31,858 nt of DNA from Candidatus Bathyarchaeia archaeon (GTDB taxonomy: Archaea > Thermoproteota > Bathyarchaeia > Bathyarchaeales > Bathycorpusculaceae), in NCBI GenBank assembly GCA_050012255.1, contig JBEKHN010000021.1, positions 1 through 31,858 of the forward strand, in the 5' to 3' direction. How positions within the stretch are numbered: position 1 is the stretch's first letter; every line of letters starts with the position of its first letter. Below the pieces are notes generated by a model. That model made no database searches and was not told where the DNA came from. It saw nothing but the letters and a program-made list of their open reading frames with translations. A program made the translations under genes and the position numbers. Shown here piece after piece: positions 12,031 through 31,858 of this stretch.

Positions 12031-12087
12031 TACTGCGCTGACATAACAAGATCCACAAACACTTTTTCTATTCCAAAACGATATTAA

Positions 12088-12810
<723 letters not shown>

Positions 12811-12826
12811 GTGAGTCTGGGAACAT

Positions 12827-13708
12827 TTGAAGGTCGAAGCTGAATGTGTGGCGTGCATCGTTAGCAGGGGCGCAGCAGAGGCTAAGGAGGCCACAACGAA
12901 CCGTGCGTTGCGTTTCAGAGCGATGAGCGACCTGATGCGATTGCTGACCAAGGAGTTTAGACCGACGGCGGTTCCGGCTGACTTGGGCACGAAGAGAGAC
13001 CGGGTGATAAGAAGAGTCACCGGCAACGATGATCCGTACAAGAGAAGCAAGAGGATAAGCAATGAGAAGGCTCTGAAACTCTTGTCCTACGCGAGAAAAC
13101 TGGTCGAAGAGGGCTACGCGCAAGAGGATCGGTTTAAGAGAGCCTGCCTGTGTGCCATCGTTGGCAACATCATTGAATTCGACATTCCAGGCCACAGGGC
13201 CTCGTTCAGCAGTCTGAAGAAGAATTTCAGAGAGGCGTCAAAAGACTTGGCTATCGACGACATCAACAACGCTTACGCGCTGGCAAAGAAGGCTCGTACG
13301 GTTCTCTACTTGACGGACAACGCTGGCGAAATCGTCTTTGACACGTTGCTTGTTGAACAGTTGAAAAACATGGGTTTAACAGTGACAGTCGCTGTCAAAG
13401 GTGTGCCGGTTATCAACGATGCGACTCTGGAAGATGCTGAGGCTTCTGGAATGAGCAAGGTCGCTGACAGGGTGATAACTACGGGAACGGATTCTGTGGG
13501 ACTAGCAGTGAAAGAGGTTTCGGCAGAGTTTCTTAGCGCGTACGATTCAGTTGACATCGTTTTTGCCAAAGGCATGGGTTACGCTGAAACCTTGACTGAA
13601 TGCAAACTCAAGAAACCGCACTTTTTGCTTTTCAGAGCAAAATGCACTCCAGTGGCAGACTATTTCGGTGTGGCAAGAGAAAAGAATGTCGCTAAGCTGA
13701 TGCCCTAG
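12827..13708 (+). CDS. DUF89/ARMT1-like damage-control phosphatase
   Basis: ECVAC, GNIIEF, DNAGE, NDAT, KGMGYAE, AKC. Confidence 0.9.
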   Translation: MKVEAECVACIVSRGAAEAKEATTNRALRFRAMSDLMRLLTKEFRPTAVPADLGTKRDRVIRRVTGNDDPYKRSKRISNEKALKLLSYARKLVEEGYAQEDRFKRACLCAIVGNIIEFDIPGHRASFSSLKKNFREASKDLAIDDINNAYALAKKARTVLYLTDNAGEIVFDTLLVEQLKNMGLTVTVAVKGVPVINDATLEDAEASGMSKVADRVITTGTDSVGLAVKEVSAEFLSAYDSVDIVFAKGMGYAETLTECKLKKPHFLLFRAKCTPVADYFGVAREKNVAKLMP

Positions 13709-16819: not shown

Positions 16820-16931
16820 GCCTAAACTTCCAGTCAACACCAGAATAAACCTTGACGGCATTTATCATTTTCTAGTGCCGATGGAAACGAGTTTGATTGT
16901 TTACGGATTCGGAATCGTTTCACAGAAAAGA

Positions 16932-17247
16932 GCGGTGGGCCACAGGAGATCGGCGCTCAGACTCCGCTGAACCCTCAAACCCTACACTCGTACCCGCATC
17001 CCCCTGAGCGCTGAACGCCCAGACTTAGGTTGCTCCCTCCCGGTCCTGGCCAAGTTCGCCTGGTCAACACTAAAGACAGCTCCCCTACGGAAGCCGCCTA
17101 ATGACCGCCAGCCCCAAGGGACGGATAGTCTTCGTTTCGGAGATGAAGGCCTCAGCAGCCTTAAACGCCTCAGCCCCAGCTTTCGGCCCGTCCTATAGAG
17201 GGTTTACGGTACAGGGGACCCCTAGCCCCCCGCCTAAGACCCACCGC
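16932..17247 (-). ncRNA. ffs: Archaeal SRP (7S) RNA
   Basis: Ends pair (GCGGTGGG/CCCACCGC), helix 8 CCAGGACC-GGGA-GGGAGCAAC, helix 6 TTCC-GTAG-GGGA, about 316 nt, T-run immediately downstream. Confidence 0.93.
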
Positions 17248-17271
17248 AAGAGGACTCTGAACATTTCAGAA

Positions 17272-17288
17272 CTATAAAACTTTGCCCC
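17272..17288 (-). promoter_or_regulatory. SRP RNA promoter; also a variant of the island palindrome
   Basis: Minus strand GGGGCAAAG-TTTTATAG about 25 bp upstream of the SRP RNA 5' end. Confidence 0.75.
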
Positions 17289-17299
17289 TAAATCTAAAT

Positions 17300-17785
17300 C
17301 TATGCTGTTGGTTGAAGCTTCTGCTTTCTTCTCTTCATTTGTTCGTAGAGATACTCCCAGTACTGAAACATGTTGAGGTCGCCAGAATCCTTTCGCATGT
17401 CTACTATCAGAGGCTTGATCTTCTCCCATGATGACTGAATGATGTCTCCCCAAAAATCGTATACAATATCCGCTTCTACCAGTTTTCTGTAAACAAGGAT
17501 GCCTATCCCTTCAAAATAGTTGCCAAGAATCTTCAACATCATATGCTCTGGTTTTTCGGAATATCTTGCGAGATAATCATCATAGTTTTCGTATTCGATA
17601 GAACAGACTTGAGTTATTGCTTCCTGCACTTCTCTGGCGCTCATATTGAACCATGGAGACAGTCTAATCATGCTCTCCGTTTGTCTTAATCTGCTCTGAT
17701 GCCGAATCTCTACGATGTAATATATGACTCCTGCTAGCACACCAGCAGAAGCAATCGCAATGGAAACAGTAGATATGTCAATCAT
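17300..17785 (-). CDS. DUF4760-like membrane-anchored protein
   Basis: N-terminal TM helix, then NYFEGIGILV...W.KIKP.I..MR...WEYLY pattern. Confidence 0.75.
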   Translation of the reverse strand: MIDISTVSIAIASAGVLAGVIYYIVEIRHQSRLRQTESMIRLSPWFNMSAREVQEAITQVCSIEYENYDDYLARYSEKPEHMMLKILGNYFEGIGILVYRKLVEADIVYDFWGDIIQSSWEKIKPLIVDMRKDSGDLNMFQYWEYLYEQMKRRKQKLQPTA

Positions 17786-17867
17786 TGTCGACACCTTGAA
17801 CGCTAAAACAAGATAGTCTTGATTTGGGTCGGCTATAACTTTTCTGCATCTCGATTTTTCGGGTCTG

Positions 17868-17886
17868 AGTTTGGGATAAAACTTTA
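17868..17886 (+). repeat. Island palindrome copy 1 (right arm missing)
   Basis: AGTTTGGGATAAAACTTTA followed directly by GCGCGC. Confidence 0.8.
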
Positions 17887-18094
17887 GCGCGCTGGCTTGT
17901 CCCTAAATTCGCAAAAAACACGAATTTAAAAGCATATACAATTTGCATATACACTTTGCATATACACTTTGCATATACACTTTGCATATACAGTTAACGA
18001 GCATCCTTGAAAACGGTGAGGCTGTTCAGGTCGGATGCTGAGCCGAGTGGGCAGTTCAAGTGCGAACGCACAATAAAGGGACAAGGCAGCGCGC
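17887..18094. repeat. GCGCGC-ended inverted-repeat element A (MITE/hairpin-like)
   Basis: Left GCGCGCTGGCTTGTCCCTAAATT; right end reverse-complemented GCGCGCTGCCTTGTCCCTTTATT; TA on both sides. Confidence 0.8.
17932..17992. repeat. 13-bp tandem repeat, about 4.7 copies
   Basis: GCATATACACTTT units at 17932, 17945, 17958, 17971 and partial at 17984. Confidence 0.95.
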
Positions 18095-18329
18095 TATGTT
18101 TTGTCGGCTGCGAAAGAAAGGAACCGATATTTGTCAATGTCATTTGGGGGATTGAGGATAATCCATGGCTTAGCAGAGCCGGTATGTGATTTTTCCGTCC
18201 GACTTGAGTGGTTAAGTCTATCTCTCATTCCGCCCGTGAATTTCTCTTTGCCATGGGGCTGACACTCCCCCTATAGGCTGAGGTAACAGTTGTGGTAATG
18301 TTGGATGGTAACACACACGTCACAGCAGA

Positions 18330-19301
18330 TCAGGAAAATTCTGCCACCATTCCGTCAACCGCAAGAGCCTTCTTGAACCCCAACGCCTTCACCGTTTCGG
18401 CCAGCTCCTGCTGCGTCGAGGGAACGGTTACGCGAAACCTGTTCACACCAGCAGTCTCAACAACGCATCGTGCGGCATTTATGAGCAGTTTCTCAACGCC
18501 AAGCTTCCTACCCTCGACGTTAGCGTGTATGAACCCGATCTTGCCTACTTCGTTAGTGGTCGTGTACGAGACTTCAGCATAACCAACTATCCTGCCATTA
18601 TGCACTGCAGCAAGCTTTGTTTCCTTCGAGGTACGGAAAAAACGCGCCAGAAACGGTGTCTTCAAATTGTTCTTCCTGAAATCGTACATCTTCAATCGAA
18701 CAGGGTCCTCCGAAGCCACGACAAGCGTGTAAACCTCGTTCAAATCGTCATTCTGAAACGGCCTAATCACGACGCCGTCAACGTCTTCTGGTGCGACAAA
18801 TGAACCTGTTTCTCCAACAAAATAAACAGCATTTTCAAAAGCTCTGAACCTCAGTTTAACATACATGTCTATCGCAGGAACATTCGTCGATAGTACACCC
18901 AACACCGCTCTCGCCTTTCCCCTTTGGCGAACATACTCAAGCGCACGTGTCATTAATCTCGTGGCGATTCCTCTTCTCCTGCAATCTGGATCAACCATTA
19001 CCACAGAAATTGAACTCAATTTCCCCCTATCTGCAACGATCGTTGTTCCCACGAGCTTGCCATCAGCTTCTGCAGCCAGAAACTTCAATGGTCTTTTCCC
19101 AAACAACCCTAACAATCCGAACAAAAACCTGCCACCCCACCCGAACCAACGGTTAACCATTCCCCTGACATGATCAGGATCAAACCCGGTGGCTTCAAAC
19201 TCCTCAGCATTGCACACGGGCAGAAGACGCAGCAAATCATCCAAATCAGACTTACGGAAATCCCTAATCAAAACATTATCGTTCTGTCTGTCAGCTTTCA
19301 A
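18330..19301 (-). CDS. Tandem-domain GNAT acetyltransferase
   Basis: VDPDCRRRGIATRL, NVPAIDMY; second domain GRKLGVEKLL. Confidence 0.88.
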   Translation of the reverse strand: MKADRQNDNVLIRDFRKSDLDDLLRLLPVCNAEEFEATGFDPDHVRGMVNRWFGWGGRFLFGLLGLFGKRPLKFLAAEADGKLVGTTIVADRGKLSSISVVMVDPDCRRRGIATRLMTRALEYVRQRGKARAVLGVLSTNVPAIDMYVKLRFRAFENAVYFVGETGSFVAPEDVDGVVIRPFQNDDLNEVYTLVVASEDPVRLKMYDFRKNNLKTPFLARFFRTSKETKLAAVHNGRIVGYAEVSYTTTNEVGKIGFIHANVEGRKLGVEKLLINAARCVVETAGVNRFRVTVPSTQQELAETVKALGFKKALAVDGMVAEFS

Positions 19302-19423
19302 ACCTGCTCACGTCAATCCCAAAAGGATTGACCATTCTCTTAAGGCTAAGTCTCAACACGTCATCACAAACTGTGACTAAACCTTAATGATGAAATGAAG
19401 AATTCAAACCGAATTAGCACGTG

Positions 19424-19627
19424 TCACTCGCTAAGTCCAATGCCTTCTTGGATCAATTCTGCCAGCCGAAAAGTGAACCGAGCCGCAGGAGCCCCATAAA
19501 CAACGTCCTCATCAGACATCACGGTCAAGCTGAGGAACTCACGAGTTTCAGTTCTATCCTCAACCACTTTCGGCTTCTTCGAAATACCTCCTAGGGCATT
19601 GCCATTCTGTTCTAGGCAGGGCATCAT
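19424..19627 (-). pseudogene. C-terminal fragment of 2-oxoacid dehydrogenase E2-like acyltransferase
   Basis: GGISKKPKVV...REFLSLTVMSDEDVVYGAPAARF matches the E2 C-terminus with the DHxxxDG motif degraded; no N-terminal part. Confidence 0.75.
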
Positions 19628-19631
19628 CGTC

Positions 19632-19659
19632 GTTGGTTGGTTGGATAGAACTTTACCCT
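19632..19659 (+). repeat. Island palindrome copy 2
   Basis: GTTGGTTGGTTGGATAGAACTTTACCCT. Confidence 0.8.
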
Positions 19660-19756
19660 TTTTCTCTCTCCTTTTAATTCTCTAATTCTAATGCTCTAAC
19701 TCTCACTCTCTCTCTACACACACGCACACACAAACACACACAAATGGCGCGCGCTA
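19658..19756. repeat. CT/CA-rich low-complexity arm ending in GCGCGC-TA
   Basis: Homologous to the reverse complement of 28263-28378. Confidence 0.8.
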
Positions 19757-19852
19757 TAGACAGTCAAATCACTCAGCAACTAGAAAAGGTCGAAGTTTTC
19801 CGTTCATATTCCTCTTTCAAATGTAGGGACCAAGTCCTTTCAACTTCAAGTC

Positions 19853-20248
19853 TCACTTGTATTCACTAACATGGACATTCCAATCACCCAAGCCTCCAAG
19901 AATGACAATGTGCAAATAGAATCTGCCTTTCACATCTAGAAGGTCCTCTCCACTGTAAGTTTGAAATGGCGTTTGAATCTCCTTTGTCACGTTATGTGCC
20001 GTGGCGTTCATGACAATAATAAGAAAATTCGAATCAAACGCGTTTATATCGTTGCAACGCCAATTAATCCGCCATTCGTCCCCAGTTATCACAAACTGCT
20101 CTGTAGTCATATCGTTATTCTGTTCGGACCCACTCCAACTTCCAATAGAAACCCATTGTTTTCCTTTTGGCTGAAGTTGACTATTGATAATCCATGCTCC
20201 GCCGATAACCACAACTAGAACTGCAAGGATAGCAGGTACAGCGAGCAT
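19853..20248 (-). CDS. Membrane-anchored extracellular beta-rich protein
   Basis: N-terminal hydrophobic helix; WSGS...F.ITG.EWRINW...GDWNVHV. Confidence 0.7.
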   Translation of the reverse strand: MLAVPAILAVLVVVIGGAWIINSQLQPKGKQWVSIGSWSGSEQNNDMTTEQFVITGDEWRINWRCNDINAFDSNFLIIVMNATAHNVTKEIQTPFQTYSGEDLLDVKGRFYLHIVILGGLGDWNVHVSEYK

Positions 20249-20298
20249 ACTTTTTTCCCATATCTCTTGTCGTCTTCATTCATCTTTGAACCCCTAGT

Positions 20299-21336
20299 TT
20301 ATCTTCTGTTGTAGTGCAGATTTAAGATTAGCTTTCTTTTTGAAGGATGGTTGGTTATTGCGTTTTCTCTAGGTTCTGTCTGACTTTGGCTTGTTTTCAC
20401 GCCTTTCTTTTTGTAGATTATGACTGTTAGTAGTGTTAATAACATGAAAAACATCGTAGCTTGAATCGATGGAAACTCTGGAATTATATATGGAACCATA
20501 AGCGGATAATGGTCAATATTGTTCGTGTCGATTACGTAAGGTCTGTTCCAGACGCCTGAGCTGTGAACTTCAGCGGCGTTCGGATGCTTTGTCAGATAGT
20601 CGCTCCAGTAGTTACCCCTGCTCCCATCATCCCAAATGTTAACCGAGCCTGCTGTGTAGGCTGGGTTGTTCACAAAATTGTTGTGGAAAATGAAGTTGTT
20701 GTTAGAAGAGAAGAGATAAATGCCATAATCGCCGTTTGCGGCGTTGTTCCCCGACAAAGTGTTATCAGAAGAAGAGCGCAGCTCAATGCCAATCCAGTTG
20801 TTTGCGGCGTTGTTGCCCGACAAAGTGTTGTTAAAAGAAGAGTCGAGATAAATGCCATCATAGTTGCCTACGGCGTTGTTGCCCGACAAAATGTTGTTAG
20901 AAGAAGATTCGACTTCAATGCCAACCCAGTTGTTTGCCATGACGTTGTTGCCAGACAAAACATTGCTAGAAGAAGAGCTGAGCCCAATGCCAACGTAGAA
21001 GTTTGTTATCGTCATGTTTCTTACTGTCACGTTGCTCCTGTTCGTAAGCGTTGTTCCGTTCCCGCTTAGGATTCCCGTCACGGTGTAGCCTGCCCCGTTC
21101 AAAACGATGTTGTCTCTCTCAACCACAATTCCATCAGCATTGGCGGTGATGTTGCCAGTTAAGGTGTATGTAATGTTGTCTGCGGTATAGATATGGGCTG
21201 TCGGCGGCTCTATTGAGCCGTCAGCCCGTATGTAAATGGTTCCACCATCAGCCTTGACAACTTGAATCAATCCCGTTATTGACGATACGGAAAGCAAACA
21301 CAGAATTGTAAGCGAAGCAAAAACAACTCTGTTCAT
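20299..21336 (-). CDS. Secreted NosD/PbH1 beta-helix protein with PEF-CTERM-like sorting signal
   Basis: Signal peptide, IYIRADGSI, 22-aa GI.L.SS.NN.LSGNN repeats, GNYWSDY, DHYPL, IPEFPS-TM-KKK. Confidence 0.88.
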   Translation of the reverse strand: MNRVVFASLTILCLLSVSSITGLIQVVKADGGTIYIRADGSIEPPTAHIYTADNITYTLTGNITANADGIVVERDNIVLNGAGYTVTGILSGNGTTLTNRSNVTVRNMTITNFYVGIGLSSSSSNVLSGNNVMANNWVGIEVESSSNNILSGNNAVGNYDGIYLDSSFNNTLSGNNAANNWIGIELRSSSDNTLSGNNAANGDYGIYLFSSNNNFIFHNNFVNNPAYTAGSVNIWDDGSRGNYWSDYLTKHPNAAEVHSSGVWNRPYVIDTNNIDHYPLMVPYIIPEFPSIQATMFFMLLTLLTVIIYKKKGVKTSQSQTEPRENAITNHPSKRKLILNLHYNRR

Positions 21337-21440
21337 CCTTTGTCACTTCCATACATAGTTTACGGATTGATTGAATCAGTTCTTACGGTTTGTGGAAGAA
21401 TCTTCAATTGAAATCGTGACTATAAGAAAGCAAAAAGTTT

Positions 21441-21698
21441 GTGAATATTGAAGCGAATTATTTCTCTGGAGCTGGGTCAAAACCTGAGGAAATTGTTGAC
21501 TCATACATCAATCGAAGGAATGAACTTGTGAGGAGTCACTGGGATTTCATATGGATAACCGATGGAGATGTATGGCGTGTCTCTGAAAACCAAATAGTCA
21601 AAGCATTCAATGGTCTAGATTACATCTTCAATATTGAATTCTCTAGAGGAGGACTGCTCAAAGAAGCTCTAGTTCATATATTTGCTAGAAATAGGTGA
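21441..21698 (+). pseudogene. C-terminal remnant of DpnII-family restriction endonuclease
   Basis: IEANYFSGAGSKPEE...FIWITDG..W matches the DpnII C-terminal motifs; in-frame stop at 21423 and no N-terminal region. Confidence 0.7.
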
Positions 21699-21704
21699 AA
21701 CAGT

Positions 21705-22349
21705 TTGGCGAAATATCCTATTTCTCACAATGGGAGTAAGAGACTAGGAGAATTCTTTGGAGAGATCTTGACTTTTCATATACCGCCATCTAAAGAGAAA
21801 ATGATTCTAGACCCAACTTGTGGAAAGAAGCACCTATGGGATGAATATCTTAAGAAGAACTTTTATGGAAAAACAAGATTGGAAGAATATGGAAAAGTGG
21901 TTTTCTCTGACATAAAACCTTATGGTCAAGAAATTGTTTCAGATGTGAATTCATTGAATTTTGATTATCAGTTTGATGGAATAGTCTATGACTCCCCATA
22001 TTTCTTTGGATACAAAGGTTCTAATGACCCTCGAAGAGAGGATTATGGAGATTATGTTCAAACTTACGAAGAATTACTTGAATTCATGGATATAGCAGAT
22101 ACAAAGTTTCCTGAATGGTTGAAAGAGAATGGGAAACTGATTGTGAAATGTGCTGACCAATATCAGACAAAGGAAAGGAGATTTTATCCACATCACTACA
22201 CTTGGATTAACAGATTATCCAATTTTGAAATCATAGATTTTTTCATTTTCATACACCATAGGATGTCACCAACGGCATTTCAAGTAAAGAATAGACCATG
22301 TTCGGTAATAATGCACACATACTTCCTTGTATTCAATAAGAAACATTGA
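21705..22349 (+). CDS. Putative DNA amino-methyltransferase
   Basis: ILDPTCG SAM motif, FDGIVYDSPY (DPPY-like), LKENGKLIVK; follows the REase remnant. Confidence 0.75.
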   Translation: MAKYPISHNGSKRLGEFFGEILTFHIPPSKEKMILDPTCGKKHLWDEYLKKNFYGKTRLEEYGKVVFSDIKPYGQEIVSDVNSLNFDYQFDGIVYDSPYFFGYKGSNDPRREDYGDYVQTYEELLEFMDIADTKFPEWLKENGKLIVKCADQYQTKERRFYPHHYTWINRLSNFEIIDFFIFIHHRMSPTAFQVKNRPCSVIMHTYFLVFNKKH

Positions 22350-22367
22350 CATTAGCGTTACTGAAAA

Positions 22368-22655
22368 GCGCGCGTGCTGAGAGAAGAGTTAAAAAATGAC
22401 TAAACAAACGAGTCAAAAGAAAGTTGTTGGCAGAAAAGGTCTAGTCCTTCTTGGAATCATGGGTATCATAGGGCTAATCCTTATTGCTTTTGGAGTATTC
22501 TCGATATTCGAGATATCCACACTTCTAGGTCTAATCTCATTGGTTCTAGGGTTCTTCACATACATTATATTTATACTCATAGAAAGAAAGTTAAAGCTTC
22601 TCTAAAAAGTTCAGCTTTAATGATTAATGGATTTCTGACCAGTGTACGCGCGCGC
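22368..22655. repeat. GCGCGC-ended element B enclosing a small gene
   Basis: AA-GCGCGCGTGC ... GTACGCGCGCGC-TA brackets ORF 22396-22605. Confidence 0.55.
22396..22605 (+). CDS. Small two-TM membrane protein
   Basis: 69 aa, basic N-terminus, two hydrophobic helices. Confidence 0.75.
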   Translation: MTKQTSQKKVVGRKGLVLLGIMGIIGLILIAFGVFSIFEISTLLGLISLVLGFFTYIIFILIERKLKLL

Positions 22656-22677
22656 TATTTCGTTTTTTGCTATGTGT

Positions 22678-22706
22678 GTTTGGGATGAAACTTTACCCCC
22701 AAACCC
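22678..22706 (+). repeat. Island palindrome copy 3
   Basis: GTTTGGGATGAAACTTTACCCCCAAACCC. Confidence 0.85.
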
Positions 22707-22756
22707 TAAACGTTCCATGGAAGCGCGGGTCTGGGCCTCTTCTAAAGAGGCATTGA

Positions 22757-23137
22757 TTACGTGGATACGATTTTAGTTTGACGTGTTGAGATTGGAGCAC
22801 GAATGATGAACCATCGAACAGGGAGGGAATAGTGAGTTATTTTGTGTCGCTTCATGGGTGGGACCTTGAGGATTTGCATAGGTTTCAAAGTGACTACTTC
22901 GCTCTCCACTTCTATTTTCAGAGTGCCTTCCAACACGAGATAGTATTCCTCAATGGGAGGTGCATGAGAATGCTCAGTTTCTTTCTCAAGTACACCCTTC
23001 TGGGGATTGTTCACAAACGCAATCTGAATTTGCTCGGAAAAGAATGGCGAAGATTCGGGCACGTCTTCTGGTGTGCCAATGATCCAACGGTTCCAAGCAT
23101 CAGGCTTGCTGAGGTCCAAAACTGCGACTGAAACCAT
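22757..23137 (-). CDS. Cupin domain protein
   Basis: HSH...EEYYLVLEG and VPPMKRH motifs. Confidence 0.88.
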   Translation of the reverse strand: MVSVAVLDLSKPDAWNRWIIGTPEDVPESSPFFSEQIQIAFVNNPQKGVLEKETEHSHAPPIEEYYLVLEGTLKIEVESEVVTLKPMQILKVPPMKRHKITHYSLPVRWFIIRAPISTRQTKIVST

Positions 23138-23293
23138 TTTCTCACTCTTCTCTTTCTACAATTTCTTACTGTACAGCAAATAAGCGTTTAACGCGCGCTA
23201 TTCCAGTAGACAATGTAGCGCGCTAGTTAAATTCAGCTACTAAGAAGGTTCAGGTTTATCGCGCGCTGTAACTTTTTCCGCACTTGTTTTTCC

Positions 23294-23320
23294 TTTGGGT
23301 TTGGGACAAAACTTTACCTC
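23294..23320 (+). repeat. Island palindrome copy 4
   Basis: TTTGGGTTTGGGACAAAACTTTACCTC. Confidence 0.85.
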
Positions 23321-23356
23321 AACACTTTAAATGTTCTAGCCAAGCAATTGAGAATC

Positions 23357-24089
23357 ATGAGTGATAAACGACTCATCGAAAGAATAGTTCAAATTGTTCT
23401 GGAAAACACTGGAAACAGTTTGATTTCACTTTATCTTGTGGGGTCTTTTTTGACGAAGGACATGGTGAAATCAAGTGACATTGATCTTGTTGGAGTAATG
23501 GAGTCATCTTTCGATTTTGGAAAAGAGAAACTGATCAACGAGAGACTGAATGAAAAGATAGTTTCCAGTCACAAAATAGATCTGGGAACAATGAGTGCTG
23601 AAGAATTCTTTGGAGGAAAACAAAAGGGCAGCTTGATGAGGCACATGAACCTTCCTGTTTTCTTGAACTCTTTGAAAAATGCACAAATTGTTTATGGGAA
23701 AGAACTCGATTTTGACGAATTACCGATCAAACCCGCATCAAAAACAGATGAAATGAAATATTGGATCAAAGAATTCAAAAAATACAAGAATGAATTCAGG
23801 AAAAAAGACAAGCTTGGAGTCGATTTTTCTTTAAGATTTTGTAAAGGTCATTTTCTATATTGCCAATCTGCAACTCCAGCTTATAAGAAAAACTAAACAA
23901 AAGAAGAAGAGATATTCAGACATAGCGAATGCTTTCAGAACAGAAAGCAATCATATCGTGCACTATTCGCTGGAATTGCGAAAAAAAGAATCGATAGCCA
24001 ATGAGGAAAAACAGTTATGGTTGGATAAGGCAGAAGTCTATGTAGAGAGCATAGATGATGTCATGAGAAACTCAATCGGTTCGACCTAG
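23357..24089 (+). pseudogene. Nucleotidyltransferase (Pol-beta-like), frameshifted
   Basis: LYLVGS...SDIDL motif; reading continues in another frame from about 23835 (DFVKVIFYIANLQL...) to TAG at 24089. Confidence 0.8.
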
Positions 24090-24120
24090 TGCAGGCAGGA
24101 CCGAATCAATCCTGTTTTTT

Positions 24121-24162
24121 GGTTTGGTTGGTTGGATAAAACTTTACCTCCCAAACCCAAAC
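24121..24162 (+). repeat. Island palindrome copy 5
   Basis: GGTTTGGTTGGTTGGATAAAACTTTACCTCCCAAACCCAAAC. Confidence 0.9.
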
Positions 24163-24206
24163 ATTTGCGCTCTCTCAACCACACTAACGCCTACTCACTC
24201 ATACAC

Positions 24207-24860
24207 TCACTCACACTCACGGCGCGCGCACGCATGCGCCAAATCAATTTTCTTGATTGACTTGATAACCTTGTTTGTCAGTTCTGTACACTGTTTCAAC
24301 GCAGCTTTGTTCTTTAGAACTTCGCCCTTTTCATCACCCGTTCTGACGTTGACCGCTATGAAGGGAGGACGATCGTGTGAGACTAATGTCAACCCAAGAG
24401 ATTCGATATACTCTACAACAGTACGCACTGTTTCTTTCTTGAATCTGCCCGTGCCTGACAAGGCAAAGACGCAGAAAGGTTGTTGCTTTGGTAGAAGCCT
24501 ATAGTTTGGTTCTGTGAAGGTGTGTCTGTAGCCTTTGTGTTTTCGCATATGAACAATTGTGTCCAGTCTTTCCAGGAAAGCTAAAAATTTTGAGGAAGCC
24601 AACAGATACTTGGGGAATATGAATATTATCGCTTCGGCTTTCTTCATCTCTGCGAGGATCTGGTTTAGATCATCTGTCAGGACACAGTCTTCGTGCACAC
24701 ATTTTTCGCAGAGAACGCAAAACTCAATTTTCTTGCTTGCTAGTTGGATTATTCTGGACTTGGGACTTGTAGACTCGAGAATGGACTTGGCTAATGCGTA
24801 GCAATTGCCGTTTTTTCTGTGGGAACCCACTATCGCCAGAAGTTTTGTTTTCATAGACAT
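24207..24860 (-). CDS. Flavodoxin-like iron-sulfur flavoprotein / FMN reductase family
   Basis: GSHRKNGN, CVLCEKC....C...DD, PKY; start ATG 24860 or 24854. Confidence 0.85.
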   Translation of the reverse strand: MSMKTKLLAIVGSHRKNGNCYALAKSILESTSPKSRIIQLASKKIEFCVLCEKCVHEDCVLTDDLNQILAEMKKAEAIIFIFPKYLLASSKFLAFLERLDTIVHMRKHKGYRHTFTEPNYRLLPKQQPFCVFALSGTGRFKKETVRTVVEYIESLGLTLVSHDRPPFIAVNVRTGDEKGEVLKNKAALKQCTELTNKVIKSIKKIDLAHACARRECE

Positions 24861-24897
24861 AATTAGACGGATTTTCATTAAAGTCTTTATTGGTGTA

Positions 24898-25059
24898 GCG
24901 CGCATGCCTGTTCCTAAATTCGTTTGCAAAATGTTTTATGCTTCTGGCTTTGCTCCGTCAATGGATTGTGATCTGCCATGAGATGGGAGAGAGCATCGGT
25001 AGAAGGCGCGTCCCAACTCTCACACTAGAAAAACGGAATTTGGGAACACGCACGCGCGC
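24898..25059. repeat. GCGCGC-ended inverted-repeat element C
   Basis: Left GCGCGCATGCCTGTTCCTAAATTC; right end reverse-complemented GCGCGCGTGCGTGTTCCCAAATTC. Confidence 0.8.
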
Positions 25060-25082
25060 TTGTGGTGTTCAGAAGGAGGTGT

Positions 25083-25116
25083 GGGTTTGGGGGTAGAGTT
25101 TTATCTAACCAACCAA
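25083..25116 (-). repeat. Island palindrome copy 6 (inverted)
   Basis: Minus strand TTGGTTGGTTAGATAAAACTCTACCCCCAAACCC. Confidence 0.85.
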
Positions 25117-25218
25117 ATCTATTGCTTCCGAAATTTGTTTCCAGAATAAGATTTTCCAACTAGTTAAACGAGCAACGCAAGGTTTAATTCTAGCGCGCGC
25201 GGTCGCTTTCTCCAGTTT

Positions 25219-26061
25219 CTATTTCTGGCATTTTGGGCAGACAAACACTTTGCCTCCTCCAAGACTCAGCTCTTCTATAGGAGTGCGGCAAACTGGACAG
25301 TTCTGTTTTCTCATGTTCGGACCCATGGCTGAAACGTAGTGGCCTTGCTTCTGATGAAGATCCGAGAACTGGTTTTTGCCGTTCAGCCGGATTCTCTCTC
25401 GAAGCAAAAGTTTGATGGCATTGTAAAGTGCTCTTTGCTCACCCGAGTTTAACTCCGAGGCCTTTCTTTTCGGATGAAGTTTAGCTCTGTATATGATGTC
25501 TTGAAAGGCGCTGTTACTCAGCCCAACCACTACAGCATCTTTTCCAACAAGAATCGATTTGAGCGCCTTGTTATTATCCTGCAAAAGTTTGGAGAAATTG
25601 TTGAATGTAAACGTCTCATCTATTGGTGACAGTATCTCTGGGTTGAAGTCTCGTTTGAACATATAAGAGTCCATAAGTTCATCATCCTTCAACACCCTCA
25701 TACCTCCCATACTAGTGAATCTCACCGTCAACGCGGTGTTGTCGGAAAAATCTATCTTCAGATGAAACTTTTCTGGAACGGTCGCTTCACTTAAGTGATA
25801 AAAAATCTCGCCGCCGTATTCAGGGCTGAGAATCATGTTCATCCCCCCATCAAGCTTCACGCGTATGGAGTTGCCCCTAGAAATGACAGATTCGACTTCT
25901 CTGTTCACAAGTTGATCAAAGGATTTGTTATCCCTGTTTATGAACCCAATTGTCTGCAATTTTCCGCAGTCTCGAAGAAGATACCTCTTTATGTGTTTAC
26001 CCTTCAGCTCTTTATTCATTTGATCGGCAAGAATCTTTGCTTCTGGAAGTTCAATACTCAT
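25219..26061 (-). CDS. Fpg/Nei-family DNA glycosylase-like protein, atypical
   Basis: ELPE near the N-terminus, H2TH (LKSILV...GLSN...IIYRAKLHP), C-terminal CPVC...CPKCQ finger. Confidence 0.85.
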   Translation of the reverse strand: MSIELPEAKILADQMNKELKGKHIKRYLLRDCGKLQTIGFINRDNKSFDQLVNREVESVISRGNSIRVKLDGGMNMILSPEYGGEIFYHLSEATVPEKFHLKIDFSDNTALTVRFTSMGGMRVLKDDELMDSYMFKRDFNPEILSPIDETFTFNNFSKLLQDNNKALKSILVGKDAVVVGLSNSAFQDIIYRAKLHPKRKASELNSGEQRALYNAIKLLLRERIRLNGKNQFSDLHQKQGHYVSAMGPNMRKQNCPVCRTPIEELSLGGGKVFVCPKCQK

Positions 26062-26228
26062 CTAAAGTCTCCCTAGCACCCGTTCTTGTAACAAACCAGT
26101 GTTTAAATCGTTTATGCACTAACCGGTGAAAGAAGGTCACAGGATATTCGTCAAATGGTTTGAAGTTAGAGCGCGAGCTCTTCGAGCTCACTAACGACTA
26201 ATCTCTTTCCAATCTCTATGCTATGATA

Positions 26229-26414
26229 GCGCGCGCATGCTTGTTCCGAAATTGGCCTAAAATGGTTTTTATTCGCCTTCCATGATTTAAGGAAGGTCTT
26301 GGGCTTCGTATCTGTTCTTGATTTCTTTGAGCAACTGTCTTCTTGAGCACTGGCAGAAATGTGCAAAACGGAATTAAAACCATTTTAGACCATTTTAGGA
26401 ACACGCATGCGCGC
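26229..26414. repeat. GCGCGC-ended inverted-repeat element D
   Basis: About 40-bp imperfect TIRs (GCGCGCATGCTTGTTCCGAAATTGGCCTAAAATGGTTTT vs GCGCGCATGCGTGTTCCTAAAATGGTCTAAAATGGTTTT), TA on both sides. Confidence 0.85.
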
Positions 26415-26887
26415 TAGGTTCAAATATTGGTTTACATTAAATGTAAACGTGCGCGCTTTCTAAAAAAAGTCCATCCATGTTCTCACTGTTTTCTCCTTCA
26501 TCGGGAGTAAGAAACCTCTAGTTGGCTCGAAGCAAGGCCCGCATTTTCAACTGCCACTCCATCTTAGCTCGGCTTGGCAATGAGATATGCTCATGTTTTC
26601 TCATCTTAGCCGCACGCGAGGGTATTTGCACTTAATTAGGTGCGAGTACCGTCTTCCTTAGATTGGAGATATCTCCCGAAGACCCTACTTTTGGTAGGAT
26701 TTCGGATTGACATATCATATTGCCAAAAGAACAAAGTGAGGACAGACACTTAAAAATAATATGTCGAAACCGTTCAACGTGAAAACATGTAGGGAAATGA
26801 TAAATTCTCTAAGATCTTATGAGAAGTGTATTGTTTGAAAGGCTACTCTTTCAATGATTAAGATAACCTGGACAAGAGGTTGAAAAA

Positions 26888-28075
26888 GTGAGTGAGTTGA
26901 AGATGCCTGAAAGGATCAAATTCTTGGCTTTTGAAGCCAGAGAGATTGGTGGAATGATTGTCAAAAACAGGTTAGTTAGATCTGCTACCTATGAGCATAT
27001 GGCTTCTGAAGGTGGTAGCGTTACAGACGAACTCATAAAATTGTATAGGACTCTGGCTGAAGGTGGAGTTGGATTAATAATCACAGGTGCTGCTTATGTG
27101 CAACTTAGTGGTAAGTCTGTTCCTTGCCTGACGGGGATATACAGAGACGATCTAATTCCAGGATTGAGAAAAATCGCAGAAACAGTCCATGAACATGGCG
27201 ATGGTTGCAAAGTTGCGATACAGCTGCTTCATTGTGGTCGTCAATCCTTTGTGTTAGAAAACACCATAGCCCCTTCTGCCGTTTTTGAACCTGTGGTTAA
27301 AAAAATGCCACGAGAAATGACGATTGAAGAAATAGAAGAGACAATAGAAGCTTTTGCAAAAGCAGCGAGGAGGGCAAAGGAGGCAGGGTTCGACGCCGTT
27401 CAACTCCACGCTGCCCATGGATACCTCTTGAGTGAGTTCCTGTCCCCTTACACTAACAGAAGGACAGATGAATACGGGGGCAGCACAGGAAACAGGACCA
27501 AAATCGTTGAAGATATTTACAAAAGGATCGTGGAAAATGTTGGAACGGATTTTCCCATTTTGATAAAGATGAACGTCGACGATTTTCTTGAAGGCGGAAT
27601 AAACCTCAACGAGTCCAAAAAGATTGCAGAAAGGCTTTCAAAAACGGGGTTTGCAGCCATTGAAACCAGCGGATGCATGTGGGAAGTCACGACACGTAGT
27701 AAAGAAGAACTTGGTTGGGTACCAGCTATGTTACCTGAAAGCCGAATAAATATCAGGTCTAAAGATAAGGAAGCCTACTATTTACCTTACGCCAGAGAAA
27801 TCAGGAAAGTGATCGCTGCACCATTAATTCTGGTCGGTGGAATCAGATCCCTTGACGTGATTGAAAACATACTGGCTGAAGGAAGCGTGGATTTCGTTGC
27901 CCTGTGCCGACCCTTGATTCGAAAACCAGACCTTCCAAATAGATGGCTAAAGGAAATTGGAGGATTAACCGGTGACTGTATTTCTTGTAACGGCTGTGTT
28001 CGCAGCACAATAGTGGGTGGCATCAGGTGTATCCCAGAGGAAAGAAGAAATAGAATACGAATCAAAGGTTCTTGA
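26888..28075 (+). CDS. NADH:flavin oxidoreductase (Old Yellow Enzyme family)
   Basis: KNRLVRSAT, GGVGLIITG, QLHAAHGYLLSEFLSP..N.RTDEYGGS, C-terminal CISCNGC; start may be ATG 26903. Confidence 0.95.
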   Translation: MSELKMPERIKFLAFEAREIGGMIVKNRLVRSATYEHMASEGGSVTDELIKLYRTLAEGGVGLIITGAAYVQLSGKSVPCLTGIYRDDLIPGLRKIAETVHEHGDGCKVAIQLLHCGRQSFVLENTIAPSAVFEPVVKKMPREMTIEEIEETIEAFAKAARRAKEAGFDAVQLHAAHGYLLSEFLSPYTNRRTDEYGGSTGNRTKIVEDIYKRIVENVGTDFPILIKMNVDDFLEGGINLNESKKIAERLSKTGFAAIETSGCMWEVTTRSKEELGWVPAMLPESRINIRSKDKEAYYLPYAREIRKVIAAPLILVGGIRSLDVIENILAEGSVDFVALCRPLIRKPDLPNRWLKEIGGLTGDCISCNGCVRSTIVGGIRCIPEERRNRIRIKGS

Positions 28076-28262
28076 AAACCTTAACAGAGAGTGGCTTGAA
28101 CTATGCAGATGGAGAATTAGTGAAAAGAAATTCGTTGTTAAGCACATAGATGCTTGAAAGCATCTATAAACCCTTGTCCTGATATCTGTTCATTTCGGTT
28201 ATAGCTTTTCCGCAAAATCATAGACTGACTTTTTTCTATGCTACGTGTCTGTCTGTGTCTCA

Positions 28263-28395
28263 GTTTGTGTGTGCGTGTGTGCGTGTGTGTGTAGAGAGAG
28301 AGTGAGTGAGTGGGGGAGAGAGCTAGAGGGTTAGAATTAGAGCGTCGTCGTGCGTGTTGAAGAAGAGAGAGAGAAAAAGATAAAACTTTACCCCC
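28263..28395 (+). repeat. GT/GA-rich arm plus island palindrome copy 7
   Basis: Core GATAAAACTTTACCCCC at 28379-28395 preceded by the inverse of the 19658-19743 arm. Confidence 0.85.
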
Positions 28396-28455
28396 ACACA
28401 CAAAAAAATTCAGGAAATGTCGAATGCCTCTGCAAACAAAGTTGCCTCTTAAGCG

Positions 28456-28947
28456 TTATGAGAGAAATTTGCTGTAGATTATCATGTCCAATCCTCTTGT
28501 GTGTTTTCTCAAGAAGCCTTCGGGCAGGAATCCATTCTTGACGTACAGCCTTATTGCTGGCACGAGGTGTGGTGATGTGTGCAGCCAGATTTTGTGGGCT
28601 TTTCTTCTTCTTCCCTCTTTGATGAACCTGTTTAGAAGTCTTGACCCAACTCCTCTGCCTCGGCACTCCTTTGTTACCGCCAGAAATCCGAGACTGCACA
28701 CTCCCGCTGCTTCTCGGCCTAAAGCCATACCTACAATCTGATGGTTTTCCACAGCAATTAGAAGAATCTCGCTCTTGTTTTCTATTCTCTCCCTGAGCTT
28801 CTTGATGTCCTCAGGTTCATGCATGCTCTTGAGTTCAGGGTCAACGAAAGAAGCAGGCAACCACTCACGAAGACTCTCAAAGGTTCTAATCAGACAATTG
28901 TGCAGGTTTTCGCAATCCTCGACAACAGCAAAACGAACCTTGAACAT
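28456..28947 (-). CDS. GNAT acetyltransferase
   Basis: AVTKECRGRGVGSRLL, AIRLYVKNGF. Confidence 0.9.
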   Translation of the reverse strand: MFKVRFAVVEDCENLHNCLIRTFESLREWLPASFVDPELKSMHEPEDIKKLRERIENKSEILLIAVENHQIVGMALGREAAGVCSLGFLAVTKECRGRGVGSRLLNRFIKEGRRRKAHKIWLHTSPHLVPAIRLYVKNGFLPEGFLRKHTRGLDMIIYSKFLS

Positions 28948-29014
28948 TTTTCCTCATCAACATCTTCAGAATCGTCTCGTTGTGTTTTTAAGAATTTTCC
29001 TACAGACGTTCACC

Positions 29015-29054
29015 TTTGGGTTTGGGACAAAACTTTACCCCAAACCAACCAACC
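29015..29054 (+). repeat. Island palindrome copy 8
   Basis: TTTGGGTTTGGGACAAAACTTTACCCCAAACCAACCAACC. Confidence 0.9.
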
Positions 29055-29087
29055 TTTTCAAGAATCAGATTAGCTCGGCACCACCTG

Positions 29088-29438
29088 TTAAACATGGAGT
29101 GCTTTGCGAATTTCTTCAAGGTTATTTGTGGCGACAGGGTCTGTTGACAAGTACTCTTTCAGTTTTTCGCAAGGATAATCGCCGCAATGGGCACAGGTCT
29201 TGACTCTCTTTTCTTCGGCGCACGGTTTTATCTCGCAGAGTTTTCGGCAAAAGCCAGAAATCACATCTGACTTACATCCGTGACAGTCAACGTCTTCTGG
29301 TTTGAATTTAATCTCGCTTTGATCAGACCAGTGTTTGGCTATCCGTTTTTTCCACTCAACGTCTTTCGTTTGAGTCGCTTTGAAAGCTTTGCATTCGTCA
29401 CAGTCAAGTCCACAATAAGCAATCACTTCAGAAATCAT
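29088..29438 (-). CDS. DUF3795 Cys-rich protein
   Basis: IAYCGLDCDEC, CHGC, CEIKPC, CAHCGDYPCEKL. Confidence 0.88.
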   Translation of the reverse strand: MISEVIAYCGLDCDECKAFKATQTKDVEWKKRIAKHWSDQSEIKFKPEDVDCHGCKSDVISGFCRKLCEIKPCAEEKRVKTCAHCGDYPCEKLKEYLSTDPVATNNLEEIRKALHV

Positions 29439-29541
29439 TCTATTGCCTTCTTGTTTGACGGCATCACGTGTTGAATGAGGGTAGCCAACGAGATAAACAT
29501 ACTGCAGTCATATTACGGTGACCCGATCTTTGATTTGGCTA

Positions 29542-29670
29542 GCGCGCACGCTGGACTCCAGAAATCAAATAGTCTCCACGCCAGTAATCATCTCGCCAGA
29601 CTCTTTGGCCAGACGGCATAGAGAACTAGATGTAAGTTCAGACGGATTAGAGAGTCCTTCCTGCACGCGC
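29542..29670. repeat. Degenerate GCGCGC-ended element E
   Basis: TA-GCGCGCACGCTGGACTC ... GAGTCCTTCCTGCACGCGC-TT. Confidence 0.5.
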
Positions 29671-29673
29671 TTG

Positions 29674-30693
29674 TTACATTCTTCGCTCTTGGATAACTTT
29701 GTTAAGTCGGAGGTCGCGTCTGTAGCTTGCTTTGCATGGATGTCCTTCTGCTCTCAGGATCTGAGGCGCGTTCAAAGTTGCGATGACTGACCAGATCGTG
29801 CCCAACCTTATTTTCTGCTGATGCGAACAGACGTAGCCACTGTGGTTTGACAGGATTTTTTCAGCAAGTCTAACGTTGACTTTTCCACTGTTCTCTTCTA
29901 GAATACGCGAAATCGTTGCGTATCTTGGCTGTGAATCCCATTCAGTTGTGCTTCTCGCGTTGGGGTCTTCCTTGTCCTGCATCTCTGGATGGACAAAATG
30001 GTTTGTACACACAATGAAATCTTCGCCCTTGTTGGGCCTCCGTACTCGTACTTTATCGGGCGACGCTTCGACTACGGCAATGTTTCCTTGTTTGTCGGCA
30101 AGAAGATAGTTGAAAGTTGAAACGTGCTGAACGTTTTCGAGAACTCTGACTCCTTCGTCGACGTTGGCGCATTTGTCGAGAACGCATCGGATGGCAAGGC
30201 AGAAGCTCACGCCCGGATGGTTCCCTGGAGAACTCACTCCAGTCATGGCTATGGCCAGACCTTTCTCGTTTATGCCGTCTTCCCGTCCAATGAAAACGTC
30301 TGTGTGGCCAAGACTGCTGTAACCATTTTCGGGGCAAGTTAGGTAGCTTTCGGTGTGCTTTTTGAAACTGTAGAGGAAATCGTAGTTTCGGCCGAACACA
30401 ACGTCGGAGCCTGTGAAGGAAGCGAATACACTGCAGTTAGGTTCGGCTTTGAAGGCGCCGATACTGCACATGAAACCTGTCAGCTGCTCGTACGGTGCGT
30501 TACAAGCGTCTGCAAATCCTCTGATTTCCTCTAGGATCTCGGGAAAGACGCGTTTGACTTCTGGCTCAGATTCTCTACCGAAATCGAGTTTTTCTTTCGA
30601 TTGACTTGAAACTTTGAAACCGTGTCCGTGAAGGACTGTTCCATACCTATGACCCATGTCGTAGTATGTGCCTTTTACCGTTGGATGATACAC
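29674..30693 (-). CDS. C45-family Ntn hydrolase / acyltransferase
   Basis: NCS nucleophile site, GRNYD, DGINEKGLA, TNHF. Confidence 0.9.
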   Translation of the reverse strand: MYHPTVKGTYYDMGHRYGTVLHGHGFKVSSQSKEKLDFGRESEPEVKRVFPEILEEIRGFADACNAPYEQLTGFMCSIGAFKAEPNCSVFASFTGSDVVFGRNYDFLYSFKKHTESYLTCPENGYSSLGHTDVFIGREDGINEKGLAIAMTGVSSPGNHPGVSFCLAIRCVLDKCANVDEGVRVLENVQHVSTFNYLLADKQGNIAVVEASPDKVRVRRPNKGEDFIVCTNHFVHPEMQDKEDPNARSTTEWDSQPRYATISRILEENSGKVNVRLAEKILSNHSGYVCSHQQKIRLGTIWSVIATLNAPQILRAEGHPCKASYRRDLRLNKVIQERRM

Positions 30694-30827
30694 AAGTTAT
30701 CACGTTCTAGTCTGTATTGCTGTCTTGTTTGAGATAATGGTTTCCAGAGGGTTGAGTGATTTTGTTTGCCAACGGGCAAATTTATTTGCTGGGAGGCAAT
30801 ACACTGAATCTTCAAGAAAAGGCGTCA

Positions 30828-31124
30828 ATGATGAGCGGATACGAGACAACTGAAAGGTTTCTGAAGGCTCTTGCTGACAAATCTCGACTCCGAATTCTGG
30901 AGTGCATAGGGCAGGGAGTTTCAAACCCAGGCGAAATTGCAAGGAGGCTCGATCGACATAGGTCGACTGTCGAAAAACACCTAAGAGTGCTTTTGAAAGC
31001 CAAGATTGTTGAAAAAGTTCCATCATTGACTGAGGCAGGTCAGCTTTCTATTCGTTATAAGATATGTGATGATGCGGAAGGTGTTCTGAAAACGATTTTG
31101 AACGCGGCGGCACGGGCGAAGTAA
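30828..31124 (+). CDS. ArsR-family HTH regulator
   Basis: FLKALADKSRLRIL...EIARRL..HRSTVEKHLRVL; divergent from the C45 gene; start uncertain. Confidence 0.88.
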   Translation: MMSGYETTERFLKALADKSRLRILECIGQGVSNPGEIARRLDRHRSTVEKHLRVLLKAKIVEKVPSLTEAGQLSIRYKICDDAEGVLKTILNAAARAK

Positions 31125-31231
31125 TTGTGGCGAATTGGATTATCCAACAACATAACTGTAGGCTAAGTGTTCGCCAGTGGTCGGGCTTCTTCTCATCACT
31201 CGCGCGCGCTTATTGGAGATGACGTCGTTAC

Positions 31232-31669
31232 ATGAAGAAACAAAGCTGGTATTCCAACATCGGTGTTGAAAAAATCGAAGTCACAGAATGTTTGGATTCA
31301 GGAAGCCAGAGAGTATGGATAAAGTTCGAGCCAGTGGACAAGTCAAAACGGATGGAAGTCTGCAACATTCTTGACCAACCAGAAAAAGTCAGTTGGAAAT
31401 ACAAGAACAGTCATTTTGAGACCATCGATAGTCAGAGCAAAAGCAATTATTATGGAGCTGCATCAGCTGGTAGCCTTCGCCTGGCACAAGGGACAACGGA
31501 AATCTCCAAAGATGCTGGAAGCAAGATTATTGTATTTCCTTTGGACAGGGGGGTCAGCTTGGACGTTTACAAATACGCGCTGTCAGGGGAGCGATTCTCA
31601 ATTGCAGTTGACAAACCCACGTGGGTTGGTTATGTGGTAAGCGGTAGTGGAAGCATAAGTCCGACTTGA
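31232..31669 (+). CDS. Hypothetical protein
   Basis: 145-aa ORF with upstream GGAG, lying between a GCGCGC run (31202) and palindrome copy 9. Confidence 0.65.
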   Translation: MKKQSWYSNIGVEKIEVTECLDSGSQRVWIKFEPVDKSKRMEVCNILDQPEKVSWKYKNSHFETIDSQSKSNYYGAASAGSLRLAQGTTEISKDAGSKIIVFPLDRGVSLDVYKYALSGERFSIAVDKPTWVGYVVSGSGSISPT

Positions 31670-31695
31670 GAACCAAATAGCTCTGAATCCTCCGT

Positions 31696-31739
31696 GGTCG
31701 GTCGGTCATAAAACTTTACCCCCAAACCCAAACCCAAAC
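31696..31739 (+). repeat. Island palindrome copy 9
   Basis: GGTCGGTCGGTCATAAAACTTTACCCCCAAACCCAAACCCAAAC. Confidence 0.85.
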
Positions 31740-31858
31740 TAACCTCTTTTCGACTTCCAAACAAGAGCCAGACAAAACGCCACGCAACCAACCGCAAAAA
31801 ATAGGATGAAGTCAACAGCGAAATTCCATACTGCGATGTTCCAGAAATCTGTTCGCCC

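Follow-up and report, generated by a model that had tools for sequence, protein, structure and literature searches.

GCGCGC-ended elements in a variable region of a Bathyarchaeia chromosome as probable MITEs of a distant IS5-like insertion sequence

Beyond its signal recognition particle (SRP) RNA gene, the 31,858-nucleotide stretch of Candidatus Bathyarchaeia DNA analysed here (contig JBEKHN010000021.1, positions 1 to 31,858; the window) carries three short elements, A, C and D, whose ends share a GCGCGC-led motif whereas their interiors do not resemble one another. The question raised by this locus is whether such elements are recombination sites that delimit gene cassettes or the ends of a transposon family, both of which had been proposed in an initial annotation of the region. 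Our analysis indicates, with good confidence, that all three belong, as miniature inverted-repeat transposable elements (MITEs), to a distant IS5-like insertion sequence (IS) that is common in Bathyarchaeia, and that they lie, together with debris, in a region of fast turnover. The window elements would accordingly be ordinary transposon derivatives and not a new recombination system.

Shared ends and their transposase-bearing relatives

The six ends of A, C and D all fit the pattern GCGCGCNKSCNTGTYCCNWWAWT. With up to three mismatches allowed, the window contains exactly six matches to this pattern, which are these six ends, against 0.04 expected; the proposal that the three elements share GCGCGC-led ends as inverted repeats is thereby upheld. 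Two end types can be distinguished. Type 1 reads TGSCTTGTCCC after GCGCGC and is present on A and on all of the long copies described below, and type 2 reads ATGCNTGTTCC after GCGCGC and is present on C and D. MITE A (17885–18096, 212 bp including its TA flanks) has type-1 ends (GCGCGCTGSCTTGTCCC), inverted-repeat arms of 25 nt and TA on both sides. MITE C (24896–25061, 166 bp) has type-2 ends (GCGCGC-RTGCNTGTTCC), with TA on the left and TT on the right. MITE D (26227–26416, 190 bp) also has type-2 ends, at the tips of inverted repeats of about 45 nt (arms of 44 nt), with TA on the right and TA-GC on the left. No strand is assigned to any of the three. They have no coding capacity: the only open reading frames (ORFs) that overlap them are chance ones of at most 69 residues, and no Pfam or transposase similarity was found. 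As single strands they form long hairpins (z of −4.2, −7.1 and −5.4 for the three elements), in which only the inverted repeats pair.

The hexamer itself is concentrated in the same part of the window. GCGCGC has 24 matches, against 4.20 ± 2.18 expected, and none of 100 shuffles reached this number. The match at 10566 lies inside cdc6, and none of the other 23 starts before 17887. In terms of maximal (GC)≥3 runs, 1–17246 has one and 17247–31858 has 17. Sixteen of these 17 are intergenic, within the 3,921 bases outside the gene list, and the remaining one (24222–24229) falls in the last codons of an ORF for a flavin mononucleotide (FMN) reductase. The spacers of the core part, 2,232 intergenic bases in the first 17 kb, contain no GC run. 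Both the concentration of GCGCGC after about 17.8 kb, with about one copy earlier, and its placement essentially at gene boundaries had been noted before, and both stand.

Two further stretches, B (taken as 22368–22655) and E (taken as 29542–31209), had been listed as weaker examples of the same element. We rejected both, as they share nothing with the others beyond a GC run, and no inverted repeat was found between 29542 and 31202. When a profile of 158 ends was applied to the window, it picked up the six known ends and nothing more, giving at B and E only the GC run and a few bases. This result argues that B, E and the solitary GC runs are not decayed full ends.

Relatives were sought by scanning the 23-nt end pattern in 185,579 species genomes, one genome per species. 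The pattern was found at no fewer than 121 loci (designated here by L and a number), and such hit counts are lower bounds, not a census. Among the matches listed, 109 are titled Bathyarchaeia or Bathyarchaeota, in about 50 different assemblies by a count of titles. The other 12 bear other titles; most of them look like chance, and three carry real pieces. The pattern is present in L121, L056 and L047, on contigs labelled Promethearchaeati (LC30) and Limnocylindrales, through either transfer or mis-binning; L121 and L047 show transposase similarity, and L121 also matches C. Many ends in the listed loci are situated at contig ends, which fits repeats that break assemblies.

Pairing of inverted ends in the listed loci gave 46 distinct elements, the window's three included, in size classes of about 130–165, 180–185, 210–245, 300–305, 390–500 and 1104–1663 bp. 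When the interiors of these elements were clustered across genomes, a D family of 13, a C family of four and an A family of two were obtained. D has full-length matches at 80–86% in L108, L060, L083, L021, L068 and L038, C has full-length matches at 71–79% in L046, L113 and L061, and the 3′ 137 bp of A are 87% identical to L009. Nine copies of the D family align end to end with a mean column identity of 74% and inverted repeats of about 45 nt. The reported lack of resemblance between interiors is therefore true within the window, where A, C and D form three separate clusters, but not across genomes, where each element has a family with a conserved interior. Inside A, a 13-bp tandem repeat is present four times (17932–17996); L009 matches from 17958 onward only.

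The longest class comprises seven copies of 1104–1663 bp between two such ends, with homologous ORFs that are 42–80% identical. Six of the seven ORFs are intact (327–354 aa) and one is broken. The copy in L079, of 1104 bp, encodes a 335-aa transposase with matches to DDE_Tnp_1 (PF01609; 1.1e-12, 48.5 bits against a cut-off of 23) and DUF772 (PF05598; 5.4e-8), and its two 23-nt ends are those of A, letter for letter. The best NCBIfam scores for this protein are 80.1 bits for IS1182 (cut-off 270) and 69.8 bits for IS5_4 (cut-off 140). Its best named relatives in a plasmid collection are genes annotated as 'IS5 family transposase' (24–26% identity), and 2,297 relatives are present in the protein database at E ≤ 1e-5. 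Transposase pieces adjoin ends in 32 of the 121 listed loci. Beside a type-2 end, the sole transposase trace is a remnant in L075 that is 36% identical to the L079 protein over 63 residues; the two end types point to at least two related transposases.

These observations confirm the proposal that the motifs are ends of a transposon family, as the same ends bound DDE-transposase copies of 1.1–1.7 kb in related genomes. The search for an autonomous copy that carries a transposase succeeded in relatives, in the form of the six intact long copies, and with respect to those genomes the elements are ordinary MITEs. Families with conserved interiors, together with the same ends around a DDE transposase, identify the elements as MITEs rather than attC-like recombination sites or members of IS630. 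The link to IS630/Tc1 that had been drawn from the TA flanks did not hold, as the transposase, with PF01609 and PF05598, is of the IS5/IS1182 kind. Derivation of A from an IS by internal deletion was considered and rejected, because just the terminal ~24–28 bases match. In L079, a tyrosine recombinase gene (2427–3104, minus strand; Phage_integrase, 1.5e-7) lies 1.3 kb from the full IS copy and is open at the locus end.

The autonomous copies resemble the IS5/IS1182 group in their length of about 1.1 kb, their single transposase gene with PF01609 and PF05598, their terminal inverted repeats and their bias towards TA-containing targets. They differ from it in the 24–26% identity to named IS5 transposases and the NCBIfam scores below cut-offs, in termini made of a GC-only palindrome and in a matching duplication that is found in a minority of elements (9 of 46). 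Sulfolobus SM elements and Neisseria Correia elements are archaeal and bacterial examples of MITEs. Like other archaeal and bacterial MITEs, those described here are short, non-coding, multi-copy and intergenic, lie at times inside promoters and have ends borrowed from an IS; unlike them, several families with unrelated interiors share one end type, and tips persist as solitary GC runs. With IS630/Tc1-mariner elements and their MITEs, they share the TA beside many ends, and mariner-type excision leaves scars in which element tips stand between two TAs, footprints that would look alike. However, the transposase belongs to another family (PF01609 and PF05598 are the only domains in the L079 protein), and TA is present at 35% of ends. 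As regards REP/REPIN sequences with RAYT, no Y1 (IS200-like) transposase was found in the window, and the partner that was found is a DDE enzyme.

The IS and MITE group is abundant in Bathyarchaeia and apparently uncatalogued; a full-text search, which reaches a part of the literature, returned no paper on MITEs of Bathyarchaeota or Bathyarchaeia. Such a group is now defined for this major uncultured archaeal lineage, and the 23-nt end provides a signature for annotating its elements.

TA targets, solitary GC runs and repeat M

TA immediately precedes 56 of the 158 distinct ends (35%) in the listed loci, against a background of 5.3%; the figures are 34/56 for type 2 and 20/93 for type 1. Of the 46 paired elements, nine, among them A, have TA on both sides, 20 have it on a single side and 17 lack it. 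The TA flanks ascribed to these elements are thus borne out as an enrichment, with A flanked on both sides, but TA is not universal, as the TT to the right of C illustrates.

Comparison with close relatives locates the join. The FMN-reductase gene next to C is 94% identical in L008, which reads GGTA and continues without GCGCGC, whereas the window reads GTGTA followed by C. Similarly, L105 and L015 are 95% identical up to CATTA, after which L015 continues and L105 has a type-2 end. As similarity ends at the TA where the element starts and the relative lacks GCGCGC, the hexamer appears to be part of the inserted DNA and the join to be at TA. As the DNA beyond the element differs from that following the TA of the relative, the elements lie at synteny breakpoints. 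All end flanks were compared with all listed loci in search of clean empty sites, and these two partial cases were the only ones obtained; the empty sites with a single TA that had been anticipated in relatives were thus found as far as the TA without GCGCGC, but with far flanks that are not collinear. A composite C–Fpg–D transposon was also considered, since the outer flanks are both TA, and is unsupported: the sequence after D is unlike that following the TA in L008.

Eleven further GC runs in the window stand alone. A (GC)4 run followed by TA (19747–19754) closes a CA/CT-rich tract downstream of a copy of the repeat M described below. At 22368–22373, taken as the left edge of B, GCGCGC continues into GTGCT, the start of a type-2-like end, and the right edge of B is a (GC)4 run followed by TA (22648–22655), with an M copy 31 nt further on. 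Three GCGCGC runs, starting at 23193, 23218 and 23261, lie within 74 bp (23193–23266), the middle one in the form TA-GCGCGC-TA. The (GC)4 run at 24222–24229 marks the 3′ edge of the FMN-reductase block, and L008 has a full type-2 end at the same point. A (GC)4 run preceded by TA (25193–25200) is located just beyond the 3′ end of the Fpg gene, and a GCGCGC run (26451–26456) lies 35 nt past D. The left edge of E is a degenerate end at 29542–29547, in which GCGCGC has TA before it and ACGCTGGACT after it, and the right edge is a (GC)4 run at 31202–31209.

TA is present on 7 of the 22 sides of these 11 runs (P = 2e-5). In 256 kb of related loci, 136 solitary runs of 6, 8 or 10 bases were counted, where about 41 are expected; 82 of them lie in the 28% of bases outside long ORFs, and TA is present on 50 of 272 sides. 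Some solitary runs keep the first 4–8 bases of an end (GTGC, ACGC or TGGCTTGT), and in L075 the left end of the transposase remnant is reduced to a GC run. The 11 solitary (GC)3–4 runs are most likely terminal remnants or footprints of former copies. In L053, a mini-palindrome (1409–1497) consists of two type-2 repeats of about 39 nt with only TA-(GC)5-TA between them, and looks like the scar of a nested insertion or a MITE without its interior.

A second repeat, M, occurs in ten copies between 17266 and 31733, nine of them in one orientation. Its 13-nt core, ATAAAACTTTACC, is GT-rich on its left and CA-rich on its right, and is absent from the first 17 kb even with one mismatch allowed. The copies are at 17266–17298, 17866–17886 (cut by A), 19633–19658, 22673–22711, 23293–23330, 24124–24162, 25078–25117 (minus strand), 28379–28402, 29014–29052 and 31698–31733. 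Their orientation is independent of the strand of neighbouring genes. The first copy occupies the expected promoter position of the SRP RNA gene, 28–40 nt upstream of its 5′ end, and L022 and L075 retain it there; on the opposite strand M resembles an archaeal promoter with a B recognition element (BRE) and TATA box. Five copies point towards a gene or RNA, as promoters would, and the other five lie beyond gene 3′ ends. A interrupts one M core at a TA; in L058, it is the other TA of an M core that carries a GC run. M was rejected as a hairpin site, with 2 of 14 copies folding more stably than shuffled sequence (z below −2.5), and as part of a GC-run-bounded element, as the arrangement varies between copies.

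The loci L045 and L015 are 91–96% identical, but two direct M copies enclose 2.7 kb (835–3561) in L045, and L015 has one M at that point (2842–2869). The exchange point falls within a shared 24-nt stretch and inside the M core, and M is there just past the gene for TFE (TFIIE-alpha). This difference could reflect site-specific gain or a deletion between repeats. The pair indicates that M does at least as much as GCGCGC elements to set the boundaries of units in such regions. The suggestion that the elements delimit cassettes is therefore sustained in part: elements and GC runs do occur at gene boundaries and synteny breakpoints, but M is the more regular boundary.

Mechanism and competing explanations

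If A, C and D are MITEs of an IS5-like element, their autonomous partner would be an IS of about 1.1 kb with the same GCGCGC-led ends and one gene for a DDE transposase of about 335 aa (DDE_Tnp_1 and DUF772), a distant member of the IS5/IS1182 kind. We infer mobilization in trans by cut-and-paste chemistry, in which transposase made elsewhere in the genome would bind the 25–48-bp repeats, excise the element and paste it elsewhere. Insertion would prefer TA, often in AT-rich intergenic DNA; A, for instance, lies within the TATA-like core of M. The hexamer reads the same on both strands, so the tips of an element form direct and inverted repeats at once. TA-(GC)n-TA could then result from slippage or hairpin loss between the tips, or from rejoining of the flanks after excision, and truncation could leave a tip joined to foreign DNA. 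The region past the SRP RNA gene would be one in which small accessory genes and gene fragments turn over fast and elements accumulate.

Several observations weigh against this interpretation. A clean 2-bp duplication is found in just 9 of the 46 paired elements, and TA borders both sides of just one of the seven long copies, that in L059. Collinearity is lost on the far flank in both comparisons (C/L008 and L105/L015), so neither is a clean filled and empty pair. That GCGCGC is invariant among the fetched ends is in part a product of the search pattern, which demanded it. Every NCBIfam IS5/IS1182 match is below its curated cut-off. No transposase of this family was found in the window by tblastn of the ORFs of the seven long copies (best E = 0.18), and the window's own genome is absent from the listed loci (best match 94%, over one gene), so that full copies are known from relatives only. 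Finally, the end profile finds just a few bases beyond GC at solitary runs, and about 41 of the 136 runs in the relatives are expected by chance.

The reading of the elements as attC-like single-strand hairpin sites, with a conserved stem and a free loop, at which the integrase of an integron-like system would move the genes between them, has some features of the window on its side: ends are alike and interiors unlike, the elements fold as long hairpins and are imperfect palindromes at gene boundaries, and the region resembles a cassette array of small accessory genes (GNATs, cupin, nucleotidyltransferase, FMN reductase). However, hairpin folding is common to any inverted-repeat element, the interiors are conserved within each family across genomes (as in the nine D copies) and the same ends bound DDE-transposase genes. 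A full element is present at only 3 of about 17 gene boundaries, and no integrase domain (PF00589) was found in the 81 of 81 window ORFs of at least 80 aa, although an array may extend beyond the window. In addition, attC sites have their core sites in the order RYYYAAC … GTTRRRY, whereas the ends here read GTTCC … GGAAC, the opposite order. With conserved interiors, the wrong core order, no nearby integrase and pairing confined to the repeats, the proposal of hairpin recombination sites was not sustained, and we regard it as extremely improbable. Alternatively, GCGCGC could be a duplicated palindromic target rather than the element tip, with solitary runs as empty or restored targets. IS5-group elements often duplicate short palindromic targets, and such a target would occur at every end, would have the appearance of a direct and an inverted repeat at once, would account for the frequent solitary runs near elements and would explain why TA outside the hexamer is not universal. 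Yet in the two close-relative comparisons the unoccupied point has TA and no GCGCGC, and the bases right after GCGCGC vary more than those further in (profile columns), which would be unusual for a true terminus. This idea also leaves unexplained the 16-fold denser targets in the spacers of the variable region, when those of the first 17 kb have none, and we give it little credence.

The solitary (GC)n runs might instead be a host feature unrelated to any transposon, such as spacers at gene ends that bind proteins or are prone to form Z-DNA. The resemblance of the runs to element ends stops after a few bases, and the runs lie between genes and adjoin alternating purine–pyrimidine tracts (19666–19744, 24175–24220 and 28250–28370). 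Against this, none is present in the 2.2 kb of core-part spacers, the runs share the TA bias of element ends, some continue as recognizable starts of an end and one aligns with a full end in a relative; a host origin seems quite unlikely. The other process to consider is recombination at M, by a site-specific recombinase or homologous exchange, which would move or remove units and make the GCGCGC elements passengers or scars. Such a process would fit the presence of ten M copies within 14.6 kb and their absence from the first 17 kb, as well as the orientation that nine of them share regardless of gene strand. It would also fit several single-gene M-to-M units of 590–950 bp, the 2.7-kb segment of L045 between direct M copies as against one M in L015, and a truncated 2-oxoacid dehydrogenase fragment that stops at an M copy. 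The L045 case is a single indel, however, and deletion between two 24-bp repeats gives the same picture. M also resembles a plain strong promoter (upstream of the SRP RNA in three genomes, with a near-copy before an IS6 transposase gene), no recombinase was found in the window, M forms no consistent hairpin, and the FMN-reductase block shared with L008 terminates at a GC run and TA, not at M. We consider such exchange at M possible but unlikely as the main process.

A broader model, which we put forward as speculative and rather improbable, would combine the two layers. The region past the SRP RNA gene would be a new archaeal gene-cassette platform, with the M core, found first at the SRP RNA promoter, as the exchange point for units of one to a few genes. 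The IS5-like elements would form a second layer, and their self-complementary GCGCGC tips would allow rejoining of the flanks once an element is excised, with (GC)n scars left as a record of traffic and as further breakpoints. If so, the difference of 2.7 kb between L045 and L015, flanked by M, would be an instance of this exchange.

Gene content and turnover of the region

The window is a piece of archaeal chromosome, with the 5′ part of the small-subunit (SSU) ribosomal RNA gene at 1–422 on the minus strand (Rfam). Between 2 and 17 kb it carries core genes, among them cdc6/orc1, moaA/moaC and genes for a pyruvoyl arginine decarboxylase, triosephosphate isomerase and a glycogen debranching enzyme. 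The SRP RNA gene (16933–17246, minus strand; Rfam, 160.5 bits) is the last conserved feature before the variable region. Past it are small unrelated accessory genes on both strands, which encode three GNAT acetyltransferases, a NosD-like beta-helix protein, a DNA methylase, a cupin, a nucleotidyltransferase, an FMN reductase, an Fpg-type glycosylase, an oxidoreductase of the old-yellow-enzyme type, a DUF3795 protein, an acyltransferase and an ArsR regulator.

Similarity to L022 and L075 (72%), the two related loci that cover the SRP RNA point, stops at 17286, just upstream of the SRP RNA gene. In both, as in the window, a MITE or IS remnant of this family (L022 1891–2152; L075 1439–2023) lies about 100–700 bases upstream of the SRP RNA promoter, which marks the surroundings of the SRP RNA gene as a hot spot of turnover in at least three genomes (the window, L022 and L075). 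Rfam searches of the window at gathering thresholds returned only the SSU rRNA piece and the SRP RNA, with no match at the elements. No tRNA genes were found in the window, and megablast of 17247–31858 against plasmid and phage collections gave no match.

Gene fragments are present in the variable region. A DpnII-type endonuclease is represented by its final 74 residues (21441–21698), beside the DNA methylase gene, and a 2-oxoacid dehydrogenase acyltransferase by its final ~50 residues (19424–19627), which terminate at an M copy. The nucleotidyltransferase frame (region 23348–24089) stops at 23896 and is followed by another open frame (23958–24089), and may be a split or two-part gene. The ~430 bases from D to the oxidoreductase gene (26457–26887) contain no credible ORF and no Rfam match at gathering thresholds. 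CA/CT-rich tracts (GT/GA-rich on the opposite strand) adjoin M copies and GC runs at 19666–19744, 24175–24220 and 28250–28370; two of the three are 75% complementary over 79 nt, and similar tracts are found in L002, L008 and L055. The sole transposase gene in the window (1951–2835) is of the unrelated IS6/IS240 type and is preceded by a promoter-like sequence, GGGGCAAAGTTTATATA, that resembles M.

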